DNA from: Candidatus Lustribacter sp.
Lineage (GTDB): Bacteria > Vulcanimicrobiota > Vulcanimicrobiia > Vulcanimicrobiales > Vulcanimicrobiaceae
NCBI GenBank assembly: GCA_965277805.1
Contig: OZ255842.1
Coordinates: 1,920,001-1,984,000 of the forward strand
Direction: 5' to 3'
Length of the DNA stretch: 64,000 nt
This document shows, piece after piece, positions 1 to 59,032 of this stretch. The first letter of the stretch is position 1. Every line of letters begins with the position of its first letter. Under the pieces are notes generated by a model. It was given only the letters and a program-made list of their open reading frames with translations, was not told the DNA's origin and made no database searches. A program made the translations under genes and the position numbers.

Positions 1-223
1 GGTAGACGGCCACCGGCGGCATTCGGAACTCGACCGCGAGAACGACCACGCCCGCGTCGCACAGCGTGCGGCAGAGGTCGGCGGTGGCGGCGGGGCTGCT
101 CGTGGTCCACGCGCCGCCGTGCACCATCACCGCGGCGGGGAACGGTCCGTCGCCGGACGGCTGATAGAGCGTCGCGTTCAGGGCTAAGTCGCCGTGACGG
201 GCGTAGACGAGTTCCGACTCCAT
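1..223 (-). CDS. Alpha/beta hydrolase (HSL-family esterase), runs off window edge
   Basis: Hand translation MESELVYARHGDLALNATLYQPSGDGPFPAAVMVHGGAW...VVVLAVEFRMPP shows the HGG oxyanion motif; TAGCCT lies 6 nt before the ATG. Confidence 0.8.
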   Translation of the reverse strand, partial: MESELVYARHGDLALNATLYQPSGDGPFPAAVMVHGGAWTTSSPAATADLCRTLCDAGVVVLAVEFRMPPVAVY

Positions 224-259
224 CCCCAGAGGCTACCGTGCCGAGGGGCCGGCGTCAAA

Positions 260-880
260 CTAAGCTGAGCGGAGTCCCCGGTTGCGGTAGCCCATCGTTT
301 TCACGAACGCCTCGACGTACTCGGGCTCGAACTGCGTGCCGCTGCAGTTCATCAGTTCGGCCAGCGCCTGCGCCGGCGTGCGTACGCGTGAGTACGGACG
401 AGACACGGTCATGGCGTGGAAAGCGGCGGCGACGGCGATGATCCGCGATTCGTAAGGGATCTCGCTGCCGAGCAGGCCGTCGGGATAGCCGCGGCCGTCG
501 ACGCGCTCGTGATGCGAGCGGATGATCGCGCGGTACTTTTCCAGCTGCGGGAAGCCGGCGACAATCGTGGCGCCGAGATCCGGATGACGGCGCATCTGCT
601 GCCATTCCGACTCATCGAGCGAGCCGGGCTTCTCGAGCACGTGGAGCGAGATTGTCGTCTTCCCGATGTCGTGCAAGCGGGCGGCCGTCACGATGCGGTT
701 GATGCTGATCTCCTCGAGCTCGAGGGTCGTCGCGAGGCGGCGAGCGAGCAGGCCAACAGCATCGAGATGTGAAGCCGTGATCGGGTCGCGCACGCGCACC
801 ATCTGTACAAGTCCGTCGACGATCGCTTGGTCACCGTCGGCCAGAGACGACTGTAGCCAAAGTTCCGTAGCTTTATCCAC
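260..880 (-). CDS. HD-GYP domain protein (stand-alone, one metal ligand substituted)
   Basis: LHDIGK, RRHPDLG, HHERVDGRGYPDGL and IIAVAAAFHAMT. Start moved to GTG 880 because the upstream part of the track ORF overlaps the next gene. Confidence 0.85.
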   Translation of the reverse strand: MDKATELWLQSSLADGDQAIVDGLVQMVRVRDPITASHLDAVGLLARRLATTLELEEISINRIVTAARLHDIGKTTISLHVLEKPGSLDESEWQQMRRHPDLGATIVAGFPQLEKYRAIIRSHHERVDGRGYPDGLLGSEIPYESRIIAVAAAFHAMTVSRPYSRVRTPAQALAELMNCSGTQFEPEYVEAFVKTMGYRNRGLRSA

Positions 881-891
881 GTGTATGTGTT

Positions 892-1803
892 CTAGGCGGT
901 TTGTGCGATACGGCCGCGGTAGCCGAGCATTGCAGTGAATGCGGTGACGAGTTCGGGGTCGAACTGCGTGCCGCTGCCGGCGACGATCTGCTCCATCGCT
1001 TCGTTGGTCGTACGCGTCGTGCGATAGGGGCGGGCAAGCGTCATCGTGTGGAAGGCATCGCACATGGCGACGATCCGGCTCTCGAGCGGGATCTCTTCGT
1101 GCGCGGTTCCGGCGGGATAGCCGCGGCCATCGAACCATTCGCGGGTGGCCCGAACCAGGGGGGCGATTTCGGCCAGCGCCGGCATCGCTTCGAGCGTCGC
1201 GGCGCCGATCGCCGGATAGCTCTGCACTTCTTCGCATTCGGCGGCGGTGAGCGGCATCGGCTTATTCATGATCGAGCGCGAGATGCGCATCTTGCCGAGG
1301 TCGTGCAGCCGAGCGGTGAGGGTGACGCGGGAGACCGTTGCGCTCTCGAGGCCCATGTTAACGGCCAAGCGAGTGGCAAGTTCAGCGGTGATTTCGCAGT
1401 GGTCGGCGAGTTCAGGATCGTGCAGCCGGAGGGCGGCGACGAGGCCATCGGCCTGCGCAGCGGTGGTTGCATCGACGGTGTTCTTCGCGGAAGCCATGGC
1501 ACCCGAGGTGCGCAGATAATCGAGCGCTTCCTGGCGGAGCTTGTTAGCGAAGCGGACGCGATCAGCGAACCCTTCGCCTGGTTGCGTCATCTCGTGGATG
1601 ACGGTGTCGAGCGTACCTAAGATTTCTTCACCGCTTGGCATTCCACGTTCGAAGTCGATCCAGGCGCGAACGCGACGAGGATTGTTCATCCGTTGAGCTT
1701 CGGCCACGATCTTCACGCATGAATCGATCGTGTGGGCAGCCCACGGGAGCGAACGGTACAACGACTGGGGTAGCGATTCGAGAACGTCGCGCGAGACGGT
1801 CAT
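892..1803 (-). CDS. HD-GYP domain protein with uncharacterised N-terminal region (degenerate)
   Basis: LHDLGK, TREWFDGRGYPAG, MCDAFHTMT; ATG at 1803 preceded by GGAAGAGGA. Confidence 0.85.
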   Translation of the reverse strand: MTVSRDVLESLPQSLYRSLPWAAHTIDSCVKIVAEAQRMNNPRRVRAWIDFERGMPSGEEILGTLDTVIHEMTQPGEGFADRVRFANKLRQEALDYLRTSGAMASAKNTVDATTAAQADGLVAALRLHDPELADHCEITAELATRLAVNMGLESATVSRVTLTARLHDLGKMRISRSIMNKPMPLTAAECEEVQSYPAIGAATLEAMPALAEIAPLVRATREWFDGRGYPAGTAHEEIPLESRIVAMCDAFHTMTLARPYRTTRTTNEAMEQIVAGSGTQFDPELVTAFTAMLGYRGRIAQTA

Positions 1804-1849
1804 CTCATCCTCTTCCATAGAAGCAGAAAAAGCGGTGTGAAGCATTGTC

Positions 1850-1933
1850 TTACAACGGGGGAAGAATTGTCGTCTGAATCGTGACGAACGCGACGAGCGC
1901 AAACGCCAGAGCTTGGGCGAGCAGAAGTTTCAC
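1850..1933 (-). CDS. Small 27-aa signal-peptide-like propeptide MKLLLAQALAFALVAFVTIQTTILPPL
   Basis: Hand translation, below the ORF-track size cut-off: GTG start with GAGG 7 nt upstream, MK followed by a hydrophobic core, polar/Pro-rich tail, TAA stop; first gene of the HD-GYP operon. Confidence 0.65.
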   Translation of the reverse strand: MKLLLAQALAFALVAFVTIQTTILPPL

Positions 1934-1967
1934 AGGGGAACCTCACAAGAGTAGAGTGGTCCCCCAG

Positions 1968-2014
1968 ATCGTAAGCCTATCTAGACCGGAATCATCTCCC
2001 AAGATATGGGGAGA
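1968..2014 (-). promoter_or_regulatory. Putative promoter: -10 TACGAT (1973-1968) and 20-bp imperfect palindrome TCTCCCAAGATATGGGGAGA (1995-2014)
   Basis: Palindrome centre lies about 43 nt upstream of the inferred start site, the lux-box/class II activator position. Confidence 0.5.
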
Positions 2015-2027
2015 AAGTGACAAGCCG

Positions 2028-4556
2028 CTATTCGAGCCAGCCCATGTCCTGAGCATAGGCAACGGCCGCAGCGCGCCCAGAGCAGCCAATCTTCGAACAC
2101 GCCGACTTCAAATGGCTGAGCACAGTGTGGCTTGAGCGCCCTAGGCGGTCAGCCACGTCCGCGGTGGTCCCCCCGCTTCGAAGCTCGCGCAAAACTTCGA
2201 GCTCGGTCCTAGTTAACTGCGTAATCGTAGCCGGCGCCAAGATCCGTCTTAAGAAGCGGGCGTGGCCATCGAGCTGAAGCGCGATTAGAGGCTCGGTCAA
2301 CTGACTTAACTGGCGGACTGTCGTCGTTTGCCTCGACGTCGAGCAAATTGTGACGATCACTGTAAGAAGGCTCGCGTCGCGAGGCGTAACAGCTGAAAAG
2401 TCCGGAGTCGGGGCACGACGAGCAGCACGACCGCGACCCAGTAGCCACTGGCCAAGAGAATTATAAACTTGCGCGTATGCCAAGAGCCGACGGCTCTCAA
2501 AATCACTATCTGCGGGCATCAGTATCGGCCGACCAACCAAGGCAGTGGCCTCGTCACGCCTCGACGTAGCTAAAATCAATCCCAAAAGAGCGTCCCTAAA
2601 GACTCGTTCGGACGGTGACAGCGCGCTATTATCTAACGCAGATAACATGCTCACGGCTAATGGCTCGTTGCCGCGACCGGCTGCCCTTATTGCCTTGACA
2701 TAGTGGAGCCACATTAGATTTCTTGCACTACGCTCAGCACCCAGCTCGACGAGACGCCTTTCACTAGCCTCGTAGAGATCGTCGTCCCCTTGATCAGCGG
2801 CAATTACAAGCTGACATTCCAAGCCATGTATCTGCATCGCTCGGTCGCCCGCGGCGATGGCTGATCGTGTGCAAGCTTCTGCATATCTTCTCGAGAGCAG
2901 AGTATCCGGATAAACGGCGGAGGCCACGCCTTGTAAAACGCTATAACCACGAGCAGCGATACTCTCGAGCCCAAGTGAGTGGGCAAGCTGAACGCTCTCC
3001 GTTGCGTATCCTTCCGCGACCATTGGTTCACCAAGGCACCAGTGAGCGTAAGCGAGGCGATGGCTAACGATAGCCCGCATCTCCACTGACCCTGCGTCCA
3101 GCGCGTTAGAGCAAAACCCAATTGCATCTCGCGAAACCGTCACTTCTCCAGCCAATGCACCGGCTACGGCCAAGGCAGCAGCAGCGTTTAATCGGACTGT
3201 TCCCTCAATGTGCTCATCAACCATCAGGGCACGCAACGAGGGTACGGCCTCCTTTGGACGCATAACGCTTACGGACAGATTAGCTGACTGGAGGGTAAGA
3301 GCACCGCGCATTTGGTGCCCAACGTCTCCTTCCAGCGCCCTTTCGAGCTCTCGTTTCGCAACCGCATACGCGCCATCGATCGAAAGCGCGAAGCCGCGCA
3401 AACCTGTTATGATCGGATGATCGCGATAGGCGCGCGGAAAGCGATTGATCGCAGCCAATATGTCCGAGCGTCTACCATTCTCAATGCGATCGATACCGTG
3501 CCGCGTCAGTAGCGCGATTGCTTGGTCCCATGCCTCGGCGCGGATATGCATCGCAATCGCCCCGTCTACATCACCAAACTTCTCGAGGGCACGCGCGAGT
3601 CGCGCAACTAATATCGAATGACGTTCGCTATCTGCTTGACTACGCTCTAAAATGAATTCACGGAACAGCTCATGTACCTTGAAATTACCATTGCCTATTC
3701 GCGACAATAGAGGTAAGCGTAGTTGCAGGCGTTCCAGCGCCAAGCGTGACTCCGGAAAACCGGCCGCACCAAGTATACGGGGCTTCAAATCACTTAGATG
3801 AGCGGCCGCCTCGCAAAGCCCTTGCTCATCGGCTGATAAATGAGACCAGACCTGCTCTTCTATAAATTCAAAAAGGACGCGTCTCGTTCGTATGCGCAAC
3901 GAGGGAAGCGCTTGTGTCCGTTCCCAAGTTCCCAACGATAACCGCACTGCCAAAGGCCAGCCGCCTACGTCGGTTACGAGATCCTGAATCGAACTACTAT
4001 CGATTTGAACGTTTAACGTTAACGCTACCGCGGCGCCTTCACTAACCTCAAATGCGAGGTCCTCTGCGGTAATTGGCAGCGCCATATAGTCTCGCGCCAA
4101 CCAAGTACCAACCGGCAATTCCGGCGTTTCACGCGAAACGATGACCCAACGGACAGTGGGAACGGTTGCTTCAATCACGTGCCGAACAAAGCGGAGACTG
4201 TTGGCGTCTGCCGAGATTCGCTGGAAGTCCTCGAATACGATCGGGGTTTCTACCGATCGCAACCTCTGCGAACACCACTCTGCTAAATGGACTAAATTCT
4301 CTTCCGTTTGAGGTCTAGCGAGGTGTGCACTCAGTGCACGCATTGAACGGGGAGAGACCTTTTCAATCAGAAGTCGCGCCACGGTTTCTGGGGTGACGCC
4401 ATCTTCGGGGAGATAAATCCAATGGGCTTCGGCACCGAATGCATCAGTGGCAGCCTCGCTCTTCCCGAAACCAGCAGGTGCGATGAGCATCGCAAGTCCG
4501 CGATTCGCCGAGTCTTGTAGGGCTTCGGTTATCCGTTCGCGCGGATAAATAGACAT
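2028..4556 (-). CDS. MalT-like STAND ATPase / helical-repeat / LuxR-HTH transcriptional regulator
   Basis: APAGFGKS Walker A, IVFEDFQ Walker B, GGWP, VHELFREF, C-terminal LTRTELEVL...VLSHLKSACSKIG. Confidence 0.85.
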   Translation of the reverse strand: MSIYPRERITEALQDSANRGLAMLIAPAGFGKSEAATDAFGAEAHWIYLPEDGVTPETVARLLIEKVSPRSMRALSAHLARPQTEENLVHLAEWCSQRLRSVETPIVFEDFQRISADANSLRFVRHVIEATVPTVRWVIVSRETPELPVGTWLARDYMALPITAEDLAFEVSEGAAVALTLNVQIDSSSIQDLVTDVGGWPLAVRLSLGTWERTQALPSLRIRTRRVLFEFIEEQVWSHLSADEQGLCEAAAHLSDLKPRILGAAGFPESRLALERLQLRLPLLSRIGNGNFKVHELFREFILERSQADSERHSILVARLARALEKFGDVDGAIAMHIRAEAWDQAIALLTRHGIDRIENGRRSDILAAINRFPRAYRDHPIITGLRGFALSIDGAYAVAKRELERALEGDVGHQMRGALTLQSANLSVSVMRPKEAVPSLRALMVDEHIEGTVRLNAAAALAVAGALAGEVTVSRDAIGFCSNALDAGSVEMRAIVSHRLAYAHWCLGEPMVAEGYATESVQLAHSLGLESIAARGYSVLQGVASAVYPDTLLSRRYAEACTRSAIAAGDRAMQIHGLECQLVIAADQGDDDLYEASERRLVELGAERSARNLMWLHYVKAIRAAGRGNEPLAVSMLSALDNSALSPSERVFRDALLGLILATSRRDEATALVGRPILMPADSDFESRRLLAYAQVYNSLGQWLLGRGRAARRAPTPDFSAVTPRDASLLTVIVTICSTSRQTTTVRQLSQLTEPLIALQLDGHARFLRRILAPATITQLTRTELEVLRELRSGGTTADVADRLGRSSHTVLSHLKSACSKIGCSGRAAAVAYAQDMGWLE

Positions 4557-4710
4557 GCTAAGTCAGCCCTATGCGCTCAAATTGAAGGGAGGCAATGGAA
4601 CTCCACGGGGAAGATCGCGTCGGCCACCAACCCGAGCAATCCTTGAGTGTGTCGGGCAACACTAGGCTAGGGGCTTAGGCACTCGACCGCTCGCGACCCT
4701 TTACGATATC

Positions 4711-7434
4711 GTGACGAATCTAGTCCCAGCGAATTACAAGGTTCCAGCATCAACCGAGAGCCAAAGACCGGACTTGCAGCCAAGCCCCTGCATGGATTCA
4801 GGCATGAAAAAGAGTCCCCAAAGGAAGGTCCGCCCTCTTAATCAGCGCGCTGCAATAAATCGCGAGTTGACGCGACAGAGCTCTGCGCCCGCGAGGCTGC
4901 GGATTATTGAAAGATTACTCTCCGCCACGAGCTATCCGATTACAGCAGTTATCGCGCCGGCGGGTTTCGGAAAAACGACGGCCATCAACGATCTGCTGGA
5001 GCAACAGCGCTCCGCATCCGTTATAATTTCGACCCCGAACGATACAAATATCGAGAAGTTTATGCAGTCGCTCGCACAATCATTTGCTCCTCACTTCCCG
5101 GAGTTGGCAACACCACCCAGCGAAGTTAATGCCGGCGCTCAAAGTGGTGGGAGCAATATCGACCTTTATGTTGCGTGGGCAAACAGGCATTTGCGCGATA
5201 TAAACTTCACGATTGCAGTCGATGATCTGCAGCGTGCGGATCATGACCCGTCAATAGCGGCCTTCCTAACGCGACTTGCTGATATCTCAAAAGACCACCT
5301 AAAGTGGATCTTCAGTTCACGGACGCACGGTCATTTACCGTTGACCCGATGGCAAGCCTATGGTTATGCGGATGCGGCTATCACCGCAGATGATCTCCGC
5401 ATGACTTCAGATGAAGCCAACCAGTTTGCAAGAGCCGTCGGCAGCCCGGCAACGTCAGAGCAAATCGACGAATGGGTCGCTATAACGCAGGGCTTTCCGG
5501 TTCCACTTACCTATGCGATCAGAGTTTCCGCAAGCCGTGGAACCGCCGACGGCATTATGGATGGAACGCGATCAATCACTTTTCGCTTCCTTGCCGAACA
5601 TGTCTGGGAATCACTATCTTCCGAAGAACGTCGCCTCCTTGAACTTGCATCATTTTTACCGCCCTTGCACACTCATCGCTATGAAGAAGCCGGCGTTGAC
5701 AACGCGACCGGGATAATTTCTCGCTTATGCAATGACATTGCATTCCTTTCATTGACCCCCGCCGGAATCTTTTCGATGCACGATTTATTCCGGGACTTCC
5801 TACGTCAACAGATATTAGCAGCCGGATTAACACGACAAAATGAACGATTGAACTGCGCAGCAAATCTATTGCTAAATTCAGGCCGCTTCGACGACGGCTT
5901 TTCTCTTTTGATTGAGTTTCTAAGTCCGGTCGAACTTGCTCATACCATTGAACGATTTCCCTCAGCAAATTGCAATATAGCTGTTACGCGCGACATTGTC
6001 GAATCTACCGGGGAGCTAAAAGTAGAAAGCCTCGGATTAACGCTACTAGTATTGCAGGCTGAGCACTGGTCGTGGATGGGAGACGCGAATAGGGCACAAC
6101 GATACGGTCAGGAAATCCTACGGCGGCCCGACGCATCATCTGGGCAGATGATGAGCGCAATCAGCTCGATTTTTAGAACGACGAATTATCAAGGACAGGA
6201 GGTTCACAAGTATTGGCTCTCAGTATTTCCTTTGATATTTGATCGGCTGGGTGACGCAGATCGGATTTGGGCTCGCGCATACCAAGTTATGTTACTTTCG
6301 CGGTATCCTGAGACCCAGGGAGTAGCCCGCTCATTCGCTAGCGAGGTACTTAGCCAAACCAGCAAGTTATCCGCAAGAGCGCACATTGATGTTCTTATCG
6401 TACTCGGCGTAGCTTTTTACTATCTTAACGATAATGTTGACGGCATGGACGTTTTACGTGAAGCCGCTGACTTGGCTGAATTATTCAGCGATGCGAGAGA
6501 ACGGGCTCGCGCACTTAACAACTACGGGGTGATGTTAGATCGGGTTCGCGATGCGAGGGTGGAGTCGATCTTCGCGCCATTGCGGGACCTCGTAGAGCGC
6601 ACGGGGTCTTGGCGCTTTTCGCACACAAGCCACTGGCTCCCGGCTCAATATTATGCAGTTCAGGGTGATTTAGGTGCGACGAATGAGGCTCTGACGCTCC
6701 AGTCCGCGGTGATCGCGAGCGAAGAGTCCGAAAAGGAGCGTTTGTCTTCAATTCGCCGACATTGCTTAGACCTATGCAATCTGATAAAGGAAGATTATCG
6801 CGCAGTCATTTCCGACTTTGCCTCTGCAACTCCCTATAAACTGCTAGAGTTAGAATACGACCGCCTCGCGTGCGCAGCATTAGCATACGGTTTTTTGTCC
6901 AACACGATTGACTGTGAAAAACTACTTGCAAAATTAAAGCAGCTTCGTCATTCAAGTCCGGTCTTTGCTCTGTACAGCGGTCGCGAGACTATCCTGATTG
7001 AAATTACTGCGTTGTGTATGGTTGGCCGCTGGACCCAGGCAAGACAGTTGAATGAACAATTTAGGGGGCAGATCGCGTCTATAGCACCGCTCGAATACGC
7101 GCTCGAGCTCTTATGTCTTGGGCCACCCTTCTTGAATGTTTCAGCTGCACTCGAGCCTTGTCTCGGGAAACCATATATGGGACTTCCCGCTTTAACCATC
7201 AAAAGGCTGATTGATCGTCAGCTGGCGGATCATTTAAAGCAACACCTGACGGCCGCTGAAATGGACGTGCTTCGCATGGTTACAGCGGGCAAATCAAACA
7301 AAGAGATCGCGAATGCACGCAAGCGTAGTGAGGAGACGGTTAAGCGACAAGTAGCCTCACTATATAGAAAACTAGGCGTCGAAAATCGTACGAGCGCGGT
7401 CGCCGTTGCGCGGGAACGAGGCATCCTAGACTAG
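4711..7434 (+). CDS. MalT-like STAND ATPase / helical-repeat / LuxR-HTH transcriptional regulator (start uncertain, maybe ATG 4792 or 4804)
   Basis: APAGFGKTT, IAVDDLQ, QGFP, SMHDLFRDF, C-terminal LTAAEMDVL...GKSNKEIA...TVKRQVASLYRKLGV. Confidence 0.85.
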   Translation: MTNLVPANYKVPASTESQRPDLQPSPCMDSGMKKSPQRKVRPLNQRAAINRELTRQSSAPARLRIIERLLSATSYPITAVIAPAGFGKTTAINDLLEQQRSASVIISTPNDTNIEKFMQSLAQSFAPHFPELATPPSEVNAGAQSGGSNIDLYVAWANRHLRDINFTIAVDDLQRADHDPSIAAFLTRLADISKDHLKWIFSSRTHGHLPLTRWQAYGYADAAITADDLRMTSDEANQFARAVGSPATSEQIDEWVAITQGFPVPLTYAIRVSASRGTADGIMDGTRSITFRFLAEHVWESLSSEERRLLELASFLPPLHTHRYEEAGVDNATGIISRLCNDIAFLSLTPAGIFSMHDLFRDFLRQQILAAGLTRQNERLNCAANLLLNSGRFDDGFSLLIEFLSPVELAHTIERFPSANCNIAVTRDIVESTGELKVESLGLTLLVLQAEHWSWMGDANRAQRYGQEILRRPDASSGQMMSAISSIFRTTNYQGQEVHKYWLSVFPLIFDRLGDADRIWARAYQVMLLSRYPETQGVARSFASEVLSQTSKLSARAHIDVLIVLGVAFYYLNDNVDGMDVLREAADLAELFSDARERARALNNYGVMLDRVRDARVESIFAPLRDLVERTGSWRFSHTSHWLPAQYYAVQGDLGATNEALTLQSAVIASEESEKERLSSIRRHCLDLCNLIKEDYRAVISDFASATPYKLLELEYDRLACAALAYGFLSNTIDCEKLLAKLKQLRHSSPVFALYSGRETILIEITALCMVGRWTQARQLNEQFRGQIASIAPLEYALELLCLGPPFLNVSAALEPCLGKPYMGLPALTIKRLIDRQLADHLKQHLTAAEMDVLRMVTAGKSNKEIANARKRSEETVKRQVASLYRKLGVENRTSAVAVARERGILD

Positions 7435-7842
7435 CTACGGTAGCGTAGCACTTTGCCAGATGGTGCCGTCGGCGAATGAGACCTGAACGACCCGAACTTC
7501 GGGAGTTCCGTTAACGTCAAACGGGTTCACTGGGAAGCCGTGGCGGATCAGCACGCCTTTCGCGAACCTCCCGACGTCGTTGAATCGATCGACGAAGCCA
7601 TTCGCGTCCACGGCAAAGACGACGTCCGTTGCATCGACGTTCGACTGGTTTTCGAACGTTATTTCAACCGATGCCGGTAGAATGTTCATGTCGTGGATGG
7701 CGTCCTGATAGAAGCCTCCGATAAACTGCGCATTTACGACTTGAATCGAGCCGGCTTCTGCAGCGCTAGCTGAGGGCAGCCCCACCGTAGAGGCGGCGAG
7801 GATCGCCGCCCCGAGGAAAGCCGCCGAAAGTTTGCTGTTCAT
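7435..7842 (-). CDS. Secreted hypothetical protein, probably beta-rich
   Basis: Sec signal ending ASA-A; TACAAT 6 nt before ATG; stop codon abuts that of the convergent regulator. Confidence 0.75.
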   Translation of the reverse strand: MNSKLSAAFLGAAILAASTVGLPSASAAEAGSIQVVNAQFIGGFYQDAIHDMNILPASVEITFENQSNVDATDVVFAVDANGFVDRFNDVGRFAKGVLIRHGFPVNPFDVNGTPEVRVVQVSFADGTIWQSATLP

Positions 7843-7948
7843 GGATCGATTGTACCCAACCTACACCCTCGGTACGGACGGCCAGCATGGGGCCAAGGAA
7901 ATCCGTTCCCGTCGCGAACCGCCGGTTATGGAACGTGCTTTCAACTGG

Positions 7949-9124
7949 ATGACGATTCGGTCGCTACTAGTCGCGATTGCGCTCATGGCCGGCTTCATTC
8001 CGGCAGTCGGGGCAACAAAGCCCGATCCCTACATCATATATGTGATCGATCCGCTCAGCGGGCCGAACGCCTACTTCGGGCAGCAACTCCAACGAGTGCT
8101 CCAGCTCTATGAGAACGTCGCGAACAACAGCGGCGGCATCAAGGGGCAGCCGATTCACTTCCAGTTCCTCGACGATGAATCGAAGGCGCAAGTCGCGGTC
8201 GAACTGTTCGGCCAGCTGGCGGCCAAGCACGTGCCGGCGATTCTCGGGCCCGACTCGCAGTCCGAGTGCCGTGCAGTGCTGCCGCTCACCTCCCACGGAC
8301 CCGTCGTCTACTGCTTCACGCCCGGTATCTTCCCACCGCCCGGGTATTTGTTCTCCGCTGCGGCTGGCATCGATCACACGGAACACGTGCTGCTCAAGTA
8401 CGCGCACGATAGCGGCGCGAAGCGGCTCGCGCTGCTTGTCGAAACCGATGCCACCGGCCAGAGCTCGGACAAACTTCTGCCGCAGACGTTGGCGAAGCCC
8501 GACCTCGCCGGCATGGACGTCGTCGTCACGCAGCACTTTGAGCCGTCAGCGCTCAGCGTCTCGGCGCAAGTCGCCAGCATCAAAGCAGCGAATCCGCAGT
8601 ATCTCTACGTGTCGGCCACCGGCACACCGTTCCAAACGGTGCTGCGCGGGCTAATCGACGGCGGACTGAACATCCCGGTCGTCACGTCGAGCGCAAACAT
8701 GGATCTCAAGGTGCTCACGCCTTTCGGCACGTCGCTGCCGCCGCTGGCATTCAACGCGCCACCGTCGTGGAACGTCGCTGCGATGCATGACAAGCCGCTC
8801 AAAGCGGTTGTCGATGCCTATCAAGGCGCCTACAAGTCCGGCGGCGGCATCCCATCGCCGAACGATGAGATGGCCTGGGATCCAGCGAGCATTATCGTGG
8901 CCTCGCTGCGCAAGCTCGGCACCAGTGCGACGGCAGATCAAATCCACGACTTCATCGAGAACCTGCACGACTTTCCGGGCCTTGGCGGCTACTACGATTT
9001 CCGCACCGGCAACCAGCACGGCTTGGGCGAGGACGCGGTGATCGTCGTGTCTTACGACTCCGCGCACCAGCGCTTCATTCCGGTTAGCAAACCGGGTGGT
9101 GAGCCGCTAGCCTCGCACCCTTGA
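7949..9124 (+). CDS. ABC substrate-binding protein, LivJ/type 1 periplasmic fold
   Basis: Signal peptide, PLSGPNAYFG, GGIKGQPI..LDDES pattern. Confidence 0.85.
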   Translation: MTIRSLLVAIALMAGFIPAVGATKPDPYIIYVIDPLSGPNAYFGQQLQRVLQLYENVANNSGGIKGQPIHFQFLDDESKAQVAVELFGQLAAKHVPAILGPDSQSECRAVLPLTSHGPVVYCFTPGIFPPPGYLFSAAAGIDHTEHVLLKYAHDSGAKRLALLVETDATGQSSDKLLPQTLAKPDLAGMDVVVTQHFEPSALSVSAQVASIKAANPQYLYVSATGTPFQTVLRGLIDGGLNIPVVTSSANMDLKVLTPFGTSLPPLAFNAPPSWNVAAMHDKPLKAVVDAYQGAYKSGGGIPSPNDEMAWDPASIIVASLRKLGTSATADQIHDFIENLHDFPGLGGYYDFRTGNQHGLGEDAVIVVSYDSAHQRFIPVSKPGGEPLASHP

Positions 9125-52222: not shown

Positions 52223-54253
52223 TTATCGATCGAGCTGCCAAGCGTTCCAATAGTCGCGGCCGAGCGGGTTCGGCGTAAAGGCGGCGAGCGCGTTGCGCAC
52301 CACGTACGTTCGCCGTTCGAACCCGAGCGGAACGACCGGCAACTGCTCGATGAGGATGGCGCCCGCGTTCCGGTAGAACGGCGCGCGGGTTGACGGATCG
52401 TACGCCCGGGCGCCGCGCGCTTCGTCGCGGTCGTACGCGGCGTTGCAAAAGAACATGGAGTTGCCGCCGCCTGGCGGCGTTGCGGCGCACCCGAAGAGGT
52501 ACGAACGATCGGGATCGAGCGCCGGCGACCATGATGTCAGCGCTAGGTCGTAGTGCGCGCTCTCGAGCACGCCGCCACGGTCTTTCGGGCCCCAGAATTC
52601 GGCTTCGGTATACGAGCGAATGTGCACGGTAACGCCCGCGGCTTCGAGTTGTGAGGCGATCTGGATTGCGGCGCTTGCGCTGTTGCGCCAGGCTGATGCG
52701 ATCGCGAGATCGACGGTGAGATGTTCCGGCCGCAATGTTGCCGCTGCCGCCGTTGCGTTGTGCGCCGGAAGCCGCTGCGTCGTGCGGTACGTTGGATCGA
52801 GTTGAACGGAGTCGGTGGGCACGAGCGTGCCGCGATAGACGGCCGACGCCAACTTCTGCCGATCGATCGCCATAGCCATCGCGCGTCGCACGCGTATGTC
52901 TTGCAATGCCGGGGAGTGAAGGTTGAACTGCAGGTAGTCCACGACGTTTGTGATGCGGCTTAGGATGTGCGTGTCAGGCACCGTGCGCGCGACGTCCACG
53001 CCGAAGCCGGTGACTTCGGCTACGTCGAGTTCGCCCGTGCGTACTTGCACCAAACGCGTTTGCGCATCCGGCACGATCGCTACGTCGACGCGCGGGCTTG
53101 CTGCCGGACCACGCCAGTAGTAGGGGTTGCGTACGAATGATAAGCGTTGGCCGCGCTCCCAGCGCAGCAGACGGAACGGTCCGAGGCCGACGGGGTCCGT
53201 GTCGAGCGAACTTTGGTCGAGCGATGCGTACTTCGCTGCGATGTGGCGCGGCAGAATTGCGAACGGATCGTTTGCGCCGAGCGTGAGGAATGATGAGATG
53301 AAGGGCGCCGACGGCTGCTTCAGTTGCACGACGAGCGTGTCGGGTCGCGGGGCGGACCACCTCGCGACGTCGGCCACGGCCGAGGTGTCGGGGACTGCAG
53401 TCCGGGGATTGCGCAGCGCGTCGATCGTGAAGCCGACGTCGCGGGCGTCGAAGGGGGCGCCGTCGCTCCAGCGGCCGGTGCGGATGCGGTAGGTGATGCG
53501 GCGCCCGTCGGGTGAGATGCCGCCGTTGGCGCGGGTCGGGAGGGCGCGGGCGCGGTCGGGAATGAGACGGCCGCGGTCGTCGACGAGGAACAGGTAGCCC
53601 TGGGTGAGCGGCGCCAGCAGCCAGCCGAACGGGGTATTGCGGATGGTGTTGAGCGAGTTGGGCTCGTCCTCGAGGACGAGAGTGGGGGGCCGGGAGAGCT
53701 CAGCCGCGGCAGCCGGCGTGATCCACGACGTCTTCTTGGGGAGGTAGTGCTGTTCGGCGGCGGCCATTTCGGCGGCGATGTTGGGGTTGAAGCCGAGCCA
53801 TTTGGCGCGCTGGTTGCCCTGCGGGTCGATGACGACCATCGAGGGGAAGGCTTGGATGCCGAAGGCTTCGGCGGCGGTTTGGTCCGGATCGAGGGCGACT
53901 TTTTCCATGGGGTGGGTGCGGGCGAAGGCGGCGACCAGCGGGGCCGGCTCGCCGACGTCGACCGAGATCACGTCGACCTCGGGGTGGGCTTTGGCGAAGG
54001 CCTGGATCAGGGGGATCGACTGCTGGCACGGCTCGCACCAGGTGGCCCAGAAATCGAGATAGGTCAGGCGGCCGTGCTGGCGGTCGATCGCGAAACGGCC
54101 GCCGTCGAGCGTGGTGAGGGCCACCGGCGGGGCCGGGACGATGGCATTTTCGGCTAGCCGGGGCGCGACGAAGAACTCGAAGAGCGCGAAAAGGACGATC
54201 AGGGCCGCGAGGACGTCGAGCCCGCGCGCGACCCACCGGCGAGCCGAAGACAT
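52223..54253 (-). CDS. Fusion: TM-TlpA/thioredoxin domain plus family-5 (peptide) ABC substrate-binding domain
   Basis: DFWATWCEPC, then EPNSLN, ISPDGRRITY..WSDGAPF, PVGLGPF. Confidence 0.8.
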   Translation of the reverse strand: MSSARRWVARGLDVLAALIVLFALFEFFVAPRLAENAIVPAPPVALTTLDGGRFAIDRQHGRLTYLDFWATWCEPCQQSIPLIQAFAKAHPEVDVISVDVGEPAPLVAAFARTHPMEKVALDPDQTAAEAFGIQAFPSMVVIDPQGNQRAKWLGFNPNIAAEMAAAEQHYLPKKTSWITPAAAAELSRPPTLVLEDEPNSLNTIRNTPFGWLLAPLTQGYLFLVDDRGRLIPDRARALPTRANGGISPDGRRITYRIRTGRWSDGAPFDARDVGFTIDALRNPRTAVPDTSAVADVARWSAPRPDTLVVQLKQPSAPFISSFLTLGANDPFAILPRHIAAKYASLDQSSLDTDPVGLGPFRLLRWERGQRLSFVRNPYYWRGPAASPRVDVAIVPDAQTRLVQVRTGELDVAEVTGFGVDVARTVPDTHILSRITNVVDYLQFNLHSPALQDIRVRRAMAMAIDRQKLASAVYRGTLVPTDSVQLDPTYRTTQRLPAHNATAAAATLRPEHLTVDLAIASAWRNSASAAIQIASQLEAAGVTVHIRSYTEAEFWGPKDRGGVLESAHYDLALTSWSPALDPDRSYLFGCAATPPGGGNSMFFCNAAYDRDEARGARAYDPSTRAPFYRNAGAILIEQLPVVPLGFERRTYVVRNALAAFTPNPLGRDYWNAWQLDR

Positions 54254-57388: not shown

Positions 57389-59032
57389 TCAAATATCCAG
57401 TTCCCAAGGGTTCCAAATCTCAGTCACGGCATGGGCCGGATGAAAGTTCTTCAAGTCGCTGTTGTAAACGTTCACGTTACGTACGAACCAGAGCGTCTCG
57501 AAGGGCCGGTCGGCAACGAGTAAGGTGGATATCTCGGCGTAAGCGCGTGCGCGCGTCGCCTTGTCATTCGATGCAATTGCCGCATTTTCGGCTGCCTGAA
57601 CGCGCGGATTGCAATAGCGCGAAATATTCCAGCCGGCGGGCGGAAATTGGTCGCAGCGATATAGGATCGAATCGTCCGGATCGACGCCATTGTACCAGCG
57701 GGTGAGCGCGACGTCCCATTTGCCCGTCAGCAGAATCCCGCCCTGAGCATAGCTCCCTCCAAACACGGGCGGGAGGTAATCCTTAACGATGAGCTCGACG
57801 CCGATTTGGTACCACCAACGTTGCGCTTCCAAGACGCTCGTCGCGGCAGCAACGTTGCCCGTTTCGTACGCCATGGTCAACGATAGCCGCTGGCCATCCT
57901 TGCGCCGAATGCCGTCGGTACCGACGTGCCACCCCGCAGCATCGAGCAGACGGCGGGCGCGACCGGGGTCGTAGGGAGCGAGCGGAATATGAGCGCTCCA
58001 GCCGTTGTAGGGCGCCTGATCGCCCTCCCCCGGAATCTGTACGTCGTGGGTCACGTTTTCAATCAAGGCGCGCCGATCGGTCGCAAGTACGAGCGCCTCT
58101 CGAACGCGCAGATCCGCAAGGATGGGGTTCTTCAAGTTGAAGTCATAGAACACGTACTGGTTGTCGGGGTTCAATTCGACCGTCGTGCCGGGAAGCCGGC
58201 GATATGACGCAATCAGCGACTGGGAGGCGCCCATCTCCAAGTCCGCCTCGTGCGTTTGGAGCTTGGTCAGGATCGTATTCTCGTTCGGAACGATCTCATA
58301 GTCGACTTCGTCGAGCTTCGGGCGGCCGCGCCAATAATCCGAATTGGCAACAAAGCGGATGTTCGACCCGCGATCCCATTTCACGACCTTGAACGGCCCG
58401 GTCCCGATCGGCTGCTGGTTGTAGGGGATCCGATTCATATCCGGATAGCGCGCAATCAGATGTTTCGGGAGCACCGGATACGTCTCGGCAGACATCGTGA
58501 AGAACGTCGCGGTGAACGGCGCCCAAGCGTGTTTGAGATGGATCACGATCGTCGCATCGTCGATTCTATCGATTCGCTCGATCAATTCGTAGCCGCTTCG
58601 CGATTGCACCGCATTTTTCGGGTTCATCACGGCTTCATAACTGAAAATAACGTCGTCGGCGGAAAACGGGACGCCGTCCTGCCAGCGCACACCGCGGCGC
58701 AAATGATACGTTATCGTTTTGCCGTCCGTCGAAATGCCGTGGTTTGCGACCGTCGGCAAAACCGTTGCGAGTTCGGGCACGAATCGATTGCGATCGTTCC
58801 AGTTGAAGAGATAGCCGGCCCAGAACATCGAGACGTGCACGTCGGTCTGAAGGTAGCCGACGATCGGGTTCAGCGAGTCCGGCTCCTCGGAATCGACGAT
58901 TCGCAGCACGTGCGGTTTCGTCCACGAGTGGCGAGCGCTGCCCGCGGCCTCGATCCTTGCACAGGCGGACAGTAGCAAGAGCACGCCCATCACGACGCCC
59001 GCGCGGAAGATCGTGCCGGCGACGGCATTCAT
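57389..59032 (-). CDS. Family-5 peptide ABC substrate-binding lipoprotein
   Basis: LSAC lipobox, EPDSLNP, WQDGVPFSADDV, PIGTGPF. Confidence 0.85.
   Translation of the reverse strand: MNAVAGTIFRAGVVMGVLLLLSACARIEAAGSARHSWTKPHVLRIVDSEEPDSLNPIVGYLQTDVHVSMFWAGYLFNWNDRNRFVPELATVLPTVANHGISTDGKTITYHLRRGVRWQDGVPFSADDVIFSYEAVMNPKNAVQSRSGYELIERIDRIDDATIVIHLKHAWAPFTATFFTMSAETYPVLPKHLIARYPDMNRIPYNQQPIGTGPFKVVKWDRGSNIRFVANSDYWRGRPKLDEVDYEIVPNENTILTKLQTHEADLEMGASQSLIASYRRLPGTTVELNPDNQYVFYDFNLKNPILADLRVREALVLATDRRALIENVTHDVQIPGEGDQAPYNGWSAHIPLAPYDPGRARRLLDAAGWHVGTDGIRRKDGQRLSLTMAYETGNVAAATSVLEAQRWWYQIGVELIVKDYLPPVFGGSYAQGGILLTGKWDVALTRWYNGVDPDDSILYRCDQFPPAGWNISRYCNPRVQAAENAAIASNDKATRARAYAEISTLLVADRPFETLWFVRNVNVYNSDLKNFHPAHAVTEIWNPWELDI

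Follow-up and report, generated by a model that had tools for sequence, protein, structure and literature searches.

Introduction

In the plcR-papR and aimR-aimP loci, the peptide gene lies just downstream of the receptor gene on the same strand, and the output gene comes next. Short peptides also act on a cytoplasmic transcription factor in the case of the lipoprotein-derived sex pheromones of enterococci and of PatS/HetR in cyanobacteria. STAND regulators, MalT among them, are known to sense small metabolites or proteins; the inducer of MalT is maltotriose, and the MalT boxes are asymmetric. Here, we analyzed a 64-kb stretch of DNA (G000:C1:1920001-1984000, hereafter the window) from a 5.53-Mb single-contig genome (G000), in which the gene of a MalT-like STAND/LuxR regulator (regulator 1) is followed by a palindrome, a 27-codon open reading frame (ORF) and two HD-GYP genes. 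The window holds one example of a cassette that is typical of Baltobacteraceae (Eremiobacterota), and we weigh whether its small ORF encodes an exported peptide signal.

With the RRNPP(A) systems (PlcR-PapR, NprR-NprX, AimR-AimP-AimX, Rgg-SHP, and ComR-ComS), the locus shares a helical-repeat regulator that has a short pro-peptide gene next to it. As in these systems, the last few C-terminal residues are the conserved part of the window-type peptides, and the short, very hydrophobic forms resemble the SHP and ComS precursors. The receptor is of another kind, since regulator 1 combines an N-terminal P-loop STAND NTPase with a C-terminal LuxR helix-turn-helix (HTH), whereas the RRNPP(A) receptors are TPR-type proteins with an N-terminal HTH or phosphatase domain and no NTPase. 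The host phylum differs as well (Eremiobacterota, not Bacillota). The system is analogous to an RRNPP/arbitrium locus (receptor, peptide, and output genes) but, because of its STAND/LuxR receptor, is no member of that family.

From MalT, the window regulator differs by its partners, which are a small peptide gene and HD-GYP genes rather than sugar-utilization genes, and by its site, which is a palindrome. The likeness to the enterococcal pheromones and PatS lies in a small or signal-peptide-bearing precursor, lipoprotein-type precursors being found at the homologous position in related loci. However, the active part of the enterococcal pheromones is a signal-peptide fragment while the conserved part here is the C-terminal tail, and the receptors, including HetR, are unrelated.

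According to PMC10075063, the simplest RRNPP form is two adjacent paired genes. Peptide signaling through cytoplasmic receptors is described there, and in PMC12998947, for Bacillota and mobile elements and only with RRNPP-type receptors. The text of the RRNPP_detector paper (PMC10075063), in the passages searched, has "LuxR" in its reference list only, "STAND" only within "standalone," and no "ATPase." In the literature that our search covered, partly as excerpts, we found neither a peptide gene described as the partner of a STAND/LuxR regulator nor a report of peptide signaling in Eremiobacterota. The cassette looks like an undescribed peptide-signaling system, of which the receptor-adjacent pro-peptide is already known in kind.

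Results

The small ORF is conserved in the genus

On the minus strand, regulator 1 is followed by the palindrome, the 27-codon ORF, HD-GYP1 and HD-GYP2, and a second regulator (regulator 2) is divergent. These elements had been proposed from the letters of the window (the sequence-only reading), and domain searches and ORF reading found each of them at its position and in this order. The small ORF (1850-1933, minus strand; 27 codons and a stop) starts 95 nt past the regulator 1 stop, leaving a 94-nt gap. Its GTG start is preceded at a distance of 7 nt by a Shine-Dalgarno-like GAGG (1941-1944, minus strand), which belongs to a GTGAGGT stretch kept in six aligned genus loci, and an in-frame stop lies three codons upstream. 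The product, VKLLLAQALAFALVAFVTIQTTILPPL, has a hydrophobic segment and then the tail TTILPPL.

All seven other genomes of the genus have an HD-GYP1 orthologue, and in six of them the DNA upstream of this gene is available; in G001, the small-ORF position is cut by the contig end, and this genome was left out of the count. The small ORF is present in 7/7 assessable genomes (the window's included), with in-frame indels. Six of these loci, again with the window, start with GTG-AAA after the GTGAGGT and have a hydrophobic middle. The end reads ...PP[LIVFM](G) in all seven and [LI]x PP [LIVF](G) in the GTG-AAA loci. In G005, where HD-GYP1 is 64% identical, the ORF has only 15 codons for amino acids, an ATG start and the end FLPPM, and its product is not hydrophobic.

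Compared with the closest genome (G003), the small ORF shows ten synonymous third-position changes, with nonsynonymous (dN) and synonymous (dS) divergences of 0.084 and 1.60 over 25 codons, that is, a dN/dS of about 0.05. Just ahead of its last codons, the G003 ORF has six consecutive C instead of the window's five (homologous to 1850-1870), which shifts the stop and makes the ORF longer; this extra C, in a genome that is 72% complete, may be genuine or an error of assembly.

A second cassette was found in the same genome (G000:C1:2677505-2681900; L013 5505-9900). Its regulator has 849 aa and is 31% identical to regulator 1; after it come a 32-aa ORF ending in IIPPPL and two HD-GYP genes. The gap upstream of this small ORF differs and is devoid of the window's palindrome. 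A genome-wide pattern search for further MK...PPx ORFs returned only the window's own ORF and two chance-like matches, its hydrophobicity filter having passed over the second cassette. Given the frame and ends conserved in the genus, the second cassette and the dN/dS against G003, we conclude that the small ORF is coding and subject to purifying selection, and we consider it almost certain that it is a real gene.

The cassette recurs with related regulators

We searched 151 genomes of the family, seven of them unpublished, with regulator 1 and obtained a match at E ≤ 1e-20 in 120. Among the 30 best family loci, 22 have a small ORF downstream and 8 have none. Sixteen of these ORFs are short and hydrophobic with PP near the end, 4 are of the same kind without PP and 2 are longer and of lipoprotein type. 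A downstream HD-GYP match is present in 21 of the 30 loci, together with the small ORF in 20, and seven loci have neither. The pro-peptide gene thus adjoins the receptor gene in the window and likewise in 22/30 loci, and the expectation that homologous regulators have small ORFs and HD-GYP genes beside them is borne out (22/30 and 21/30).

We then used a strict detector, which retains hydrophobic ORFs of 14-40 aa if they have a Shine-Dalgarno-like motif and lie no more than 450 nt past a long ORF. It gave 22 matches in 90 downstream stretches on the coding strand and 3/90 on their reverse complements, all three poor and scattered, which places the small ORF there beyond chance. In the 22 matches, the ORF starts 74-111 nt past the regulator stop, with one exception at 289 nt. 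A scan of public species genomes returned 80 loci and added further cases. A short frame with a GTG start in DNA rich in G+C, which abounds in open frames, might be expected to arise by chance in the 5' untranslated region of an HD-GYP operon. Such a frame would hardly keep its start and its C-terminal motif throughout the genus and in paralogous cassettes, nor show so low a dN/dS at a dS of 1.6, nor be so enriched on the coding strand, and we regard this explanation as close to negligible.

The curated set holds 34 peptides of 15-42 residues; one of them (L043) comes from an unpublished genome, but an identical peptide occurs in the public L069 and nothing rests on L043 alone. An uncharged run of at least 12 residues is present in 25 peptides, a lipobox-like Cys in 9 and K/R at residues 2-5 in 3. 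Within the last eight residues, 25 peptides have PP and 33 have any Pro. In one clade, the ORFs have 20 aa and the C-terminus ...TPPDPF or a form of it changed at one residue, and no HD-GYP gene is next to them; the cassette there consists of the regulator, the peptide, a protein of about 165 aa (protein X), an OmpR-type regulator and a histidine kinase. HD-GYP is accordingly not an obligatory part of the cassette. Protein X, the OmpR-type regulator and the histidine kinase are also found downstream of the HD-GYP gene in another clade. Protein X is 48% identical between the two clades (L058 5761-8372; L055 5655-8425; L064 6640-8044) and has no Pfam, PADLOC or reliable Atlas match.

Pro-Pro slows ribosomes, and the small ORF could be a cis-acting leader in which a pause at these codons tunes HD-GYP translation, the peptide itself being functionless. 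The frequency of PP near the end would agree with this, as would the short distance to HD-GYP1, which starts 4 nt past the small-ORF stop in the window and 10-33 nt past it in two clade-A loci. Yet 9/34 peptides have no PP, the stop comes anywhere between 1 and 4 codons after PP, and in one clade there is no HD-GYP gene after the ORF to be tuned. Furthermore, the hydrophobic character of the N-terminal part is kept and lipoprotein forms occupy the same place, neither of which a leader needs, and there is no terminator-like site or known RNA element. We therefore judge a leader improbable.

In a FastTree tree of 76 regulators (SH-like support only), the peptide-bearing regulators form two clades (8/9 and 26/30 rows). 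One of the four rows labeled "none" in the larger clade (L076) does hold a PPDPLY ORF, missed in labeling. A separate clade of 16 Eremiobacterota regulators has no peptide ORF, and none was found in the 17 out-of-phylum rows (Variovorax, Marinobacter, Chloroflexota and others). The label "peptide" requires 5 changes on this tree against a mean of 25 after shuffling, and 0/500 shuffles were as low. In a sister family of the same order (f2), a full-length regulator was found in 4/5 genomes (E 1e-135 to 1e-149), followed by an ORF of about 50 aa with a lipoprotein signal peptide (...LGLAAC...) and the C-terminus GG[LM]PPN[HL], and then by an HD_5 protein. In another family of the class, 13/32 genomes gave weak matches (best E 7.8e-52), nearly all partial; the small ORF is absent at L130, the only near-full-length regulator match in that family.

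The small-ORF product is probably extracytoplasmic

Precursors of lipoprotein type, with a lipobox Cys by pattern, take the position of the small ORF in f2 (4/5 genomes) and in one Baltobacteraceae clade (3 loci). They are about 50 to 90 aa or more in length, and those of f2 end in PPN[HL]. The window's peptide has no Cys and consequently no lipobox. These position-matched ORFs end in the same kind of PP tail and, should they be lipoproteins, this tail has to be on the outer side of the membrane. The small-ORF product is therefore probably extracytoplasmic, and the short forms look like a lipoprotein-type gene whose mature part would have shrunk to 6-9 residues. Export or insertion into the membrane seems quite likely to us. 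The claim of an exported propeptide is plausible in view of the lipoprotein-type ORFs with their shared position and PP motif and of the lipobox-like Cys in 9/34 peptides; the Lys-containing N-region of a classical signal peptide is rare (K/R at residues 2-5 in 3/34), and the G005 form is not hydrophobic. The genome encodes a single LspA and 17 SBP_bac_5 proteins, which are binding proteins of oligopeptide/dipeptide type, two of them in the window (52496-53518 and 57656-58777, minus strand). Thus machinery exists and peptide uptake is possible, these genes being permissive only.

The tails are conserved within clades in comparison with the variable hydrophobic parts; for example, ...TPPDPF recurs in 6 loci. 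L052 has a 35-aa ORF, about 130-235 nt past the regulator stop, with three repeats of an eight-residue unit ending in VPVGGA. Two tandem 22-aa ORFs are present in G137 (L023), about 247 and 387 nt past the stop, which differ by 5 synonymous and 3 conservative changes. Together, the conserved tails, the tandem copies and the triplicated precursor suggest a short released product.

A small hydrophobic product might also be a membrane-damaging toxic peptide or a bacteriocin-like product under the control of the regulator. Its length and hydrophobicity would be like those of type I toxins. But the cassette contains no immunity, antitoxin or export gene, the part under conservation is the short polar Pro-rich tail and not the hydrophobic stretch, and PADLOC gives nothing beyond generic HTH/HD matches, which makes a toxin very improbable.

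A palindrome lies between regulator 1 and the small ORF

The palindrome, with the sequence TCTCCC-N8-GGGAGA (1995-2014), begins 14 nt past the regulator 1 stop and is a candidate operator for this regulator. The exact sequence occurs once in the 5.53-Mb genome, about 0.6 sites being expected by composition, and it is conserved in every genus locus that holds this stretch. Downstream of it, the hexamer TACGAT (1968-1973, minus strand) is −10-like, has no good −35 and is conserved in the genus alignment. The center of the palindrome lies near −43.5 when the first base of TACGAT is taken as −12, and LuxR-type activators commonly bind near such a position. In other clades, this position is taken by palindromes of their own, with arms of at least 7 in 26/33 gaps against 22% of shuffles, and in 20/33 gaps the center is 63-81 nt ahead of the small-ORF start. 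The palindrome announced in the sequence-only reading thus sits where the box of a LuxR-type activator would lie, with analogues in other clades.

A consensus scan of the minus strand between 1700 and 2200 detected neither a full sigma-70 consensus nor a terminator-like site. If TACGAT serves as a −10 element, its isolation from a good −35 would fit an activator-dependent promoter. We consider it likely that regulator 1 drives the small ORF through the palindrome. On the opposite strand, a sigma-70-like promoter match (9/12) at 1929-1957 (plus strand) overlaps the start of the small ORF; it could reflect an antisense transcript or chance. A riboswitch is unsupported, as no known RNA family was found in 1-8000, where the sole match was Methylosinus-1 (E 0.9, 18 bits against a 145-bit cut-off).

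One of the two HD-GYP proteins has a degenerate metal site

HD-GYP1 (892-1845, minus strand) consists of an N-terminal domain of about 130 aa that belongs to no known family and an HD-GYP domain, and HD-GYP2 (260-880, minus strand; GTG start at 880) is a stand-alone HD-GYP domain. Both match PF13487 HD_5 (1.2e-31 and 6e-32, respectively), and HD-GYP2 also matches TIGR00277 HDIG. The motifs of HD-GYP2 are intact (LHDIGK and HHERVDGRGYP). In HD-GYP1, the HD and GYP are present, but the HHExxDGxGYP motif reads TREWFDGRGYP, with both His replaced, and alignment to 5z7c and 4r8z shows a further His changed to Tyr. The idea of an HD-GYP output pair therefore holds for the domain matches of both proteins and for the motifs of HD-GYP2, and fails for the two motif histidines of HD-GYP1.

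The counterparts of HD-GYP1 read QREWFDGRGYP in G002 and HRERADGTGYP in G005. Among 32 related cassettes with an HD match, the first HD-GYP has an intact HHE..DGxGYP in 27, 26 of which also have the HD motif (regex), so the degenerate copy is a feature of this genus. Both proteins match HD-GYP enzymes of solved structure (PA4781 4r8z, V-cGAP3 5z7c, and PmGH 4mcw), with E 2.8e-25 to 9.6e-16 for HD-GYP1, which differs from them by TR in place of HH and by the Tyr; candidate substrates for such enzymes are c-di-GMP or 3'3'-cGAMP. Since the HH pair and one more His are lost, HD-GYP1 is probably inactive and would act through binding or as a partner, not as an enzyme.

Beyond HD-GYP2, after a spacing of 36 nt, the minus strand carries an alpha/beta-hydrolase gene (1-223), which extends before the window (L151:8448-9224). 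Its product matches Abhydrolase_3 (2.6e-26) and, more weakly, the Peptidase_S9 prolyl-oligopeptidase family (4.7e-12). This gene is possibly cotranscribed with HD-GYP2; that it has to do with processing of the Pro-rich tail is pure speculation.

Regulator 1 has the architecture of MalT, and regulator 2 is an optional neighbor

Regulator 1 (2028-4556, minus strand; 842 aa) matches the NCBIfam MalT model over residues 5-388 (E 1.9e-29) and the GerE/LuxR HTH (PF00196) over residues 780-835 (E 5.9e-10). Its Pfam AAA_22 match is weak (E 0.0086, under the cut-off), and the Pfam search gave no TPR match. The AlphaFold2 model (pLDDT 89.5) has as its best Foldseek matches 6mfv, a STAND-TPR protein (1.4e-11), and 8bob_C, the N-terminal half of MalT (3.8e-11, TMt 0.76). 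The domains follow each other in the order known from MalT and the LAL regulators, namely a P-loop NTPase, a winged helix/arm, an all-helical sensor (about residues 400-770) and the C-terminal LuxR/GerE HTH, and the Walker A motif APAGFGKS is invariant across a 37-row alignment of the regulators. Regulator 1 thus belongs to the MalT/LAL architectural class. MalT equivalog identity is excluded for both regulators, whose matches to the N-terminal ~350-390 residues of the model reach 102.3 (regulator 1) and 79.2 bits, far under the curated cut-off of 537. We also rejected a defense-system reading of the STAND proteins, as the PADLOC matches are all generic ones, to HTH (CARF3--CARF model, C-terminal part) and to HD (Cas3).

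Regulator 2 (4711-7434, plus strand; 907 aa) matches AAA_22 (2.8e-8) and GerE (9.9e-14). Over the N-terminal ~350 residues, it shares only about 25-28% identity with regulator 1, and its branch in the tree is very long. An orthologue is adjacent in 4/6 genus loci in which that flank could be examined, those of G003, G002 and G006 being 88%, 45% and 51% identical. It is absent from G005 and from the second cassette of G000, and was not found in the ~1.1 kb that remain of the G004 contig. The second paralogous regulator of the sequence-only reading is thus present, divergent and of STAND/LuxR type, but as a distant relative and an optional neighbor outside the core cassette. The end of regulator 2 adjoins an ORF of 135 aa on the other strand (7435-7842, minus strand), whose N-terminus is signal-peptide-like and which has no Pfam or NCBIfam match; it shows the region's highest dN/dS against G003 (0.38).

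The small ORF follows the regulator in divergent alleles

In the comparison of G000 with G003, identity is 95-99% in the flanks and in both HD-GYP genes (HD-GYP dS 0.12-0.15). At about 1800-1845, it falls to 75-85%, a level kept throughout the peptide gene and regulator 1, where dS is 0.5-2.4 for the regulator and 1.6 for the peptide, with dN/dS of 0.01-0.05. We read this divergent stretch as an old allele or a recombination block with its edge between the peptide gene and HD-GYP1. The regulators of L058 and L066 are mosaic: the NTPase half is 97% identical (dS 0.26 in the nucleotide-binding domain, NBD), whereas sensor and HTH are 57-61% identical (HTH 57%), with a dS of 2.6 in the sensor and saturation in the HTH. 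This pattern points to recombination within the regulator gene and, with an edge inside the regulator, sensor, HTH and downstream part seem to move together. As the peptide is kept where HD-GYP is lost and the G000/G003 edge falls between the peptide gene and HD-GYP1, we assign the small ORF to the regulator rather than to HD-GYP. We rejected positive selection, whether on sensor or peptide: dN/dS is 0.01-0.18 wherever measured and the divergence is mostly synonymous, which argues for old alleles or recombination.

The co-variation of receptor and peptide that had been proposed as a check turned out to be weak. Between tail similarity and sensor identity, with NBD identity allowed for, the Spearman coefficient was 0.16 over non-independent pairs. 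In the closest band, sensor identity did not differ between pairs with similar and with different tails (0.59, n = 16, and 0.61, n = 9), and among regulators that share a ...PPDPF-type tail the sensors are only 52-60% identical. When the 27-aa peptide was co-folded with regulator 1 (37-row alignment), the ipSAE values were 0.02 and 0.01 and the mark was 0.32, which count neither way, the peptide being shorter than any calibration partner.

Weak co-variation would be expected if the product were an exported or membrane mini-protein or mini-lipoprotein, the first structural gene of the operon, with a role in the envelope such as modulating a histidine kinase or another envelope protein, and if the STAND ligand were unrelated to it. 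Lipoprotein-type homologues in the same position agree with this possibility, as does the cassette of two clades in which regulator, peptide, (HD-GYP), protein X, OmpR-type regulator and histidine kinase follow each other. Membrane proteins this small exist, such as the 27-aa YohP (PMC7549839). However, the peptide stays beside the regulator even where HD-GYP is lost, it is kept in the window's genus with no two-component system adjacent, and tandem copies and a triplicated precursor fit a released product better than a stoichiometric membrane partner. We regard a mini-protein as possible, but rather unlikely.

Discussion

Our analysis is compatible with a model in which the MalT-type STAND/LuxR activator would bind a private palindrome shortly past the end of its own gene and drive an operon from there, the first gene of which would be a very short pro-peptide. 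The hydrophobic N-terminal part would carry the peptide into or across the cytoplasmic membrane, and the short Pro-rich C-terminal tail (...TILPPL) would be the active part outside the cell. This tail would feed back on the regulator in one of two ways, by being re-imported and bound by the helical sensor or through another receptor. Peptide output and the cotranscribed HD-GYP phosphodiesterase(s), which would lower the cyclic dinucleotide, would then be switched on together. A regulator-driven exported peptide signal that feeds back on its regulator is, tentatively, the explanation that we find best for the whole, and it may well prove wrong.

Several points weigh against this model. Its steps of secretion, processing, import and binding are inferred, and re-import of the tail with switching of the STAND sensor is pure inference. 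Most peptides have no charged N-region, with K/R in residues 2-5 in 3/34 only, and the orthologue of G005 is a non-hydrophobic product of 15 aa, so that Sec-type export would not be a conserved property. The old-allele pattern is equally compatible with a regulator and its target promoter simply being inherited together. The tail and sensor comparisons described above would also be expected to show more agreement. Finally, many cassettes include an OmpR-type regulator and a histidine kinase, which could be the true receptor. Direct sensing of the peptide by the STAND sensor domain is, in our view, conceivable but unlikely.

If the peptide-signal model holds, peptide communication would gain a new receptor class and a new phylum, almost uncultured and from soil and peat, and peptide signaling would be linked to cyclic-dinucleotide control. 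There is a real chance that STAND/LuxR regulators are such a new class of receptors for peptide signals. In its broadest form, which we consider doubtful, MalT-type STAND NTPases of Eremiobacterota would be cytoplasmic receptors for short exported peptides of ribosomal origin, encoded directly downstream, forming a non-RRNPP, non-Bacillota quorum sensing coupled to cyclic-dinucleotide turnover. The module of sensor, HTH, operator and peptide would then pass between lineages as one unit, with a different type of signal in every species of the genus. The system offers an experimentally simple handle, for which synthetic hexa- to decapeptides and a reporter would suffice. Even without a role in signaling, the small ORFs represent a conserved family of small proteins (15-42 aa, unannotated) that gene callers have missed.

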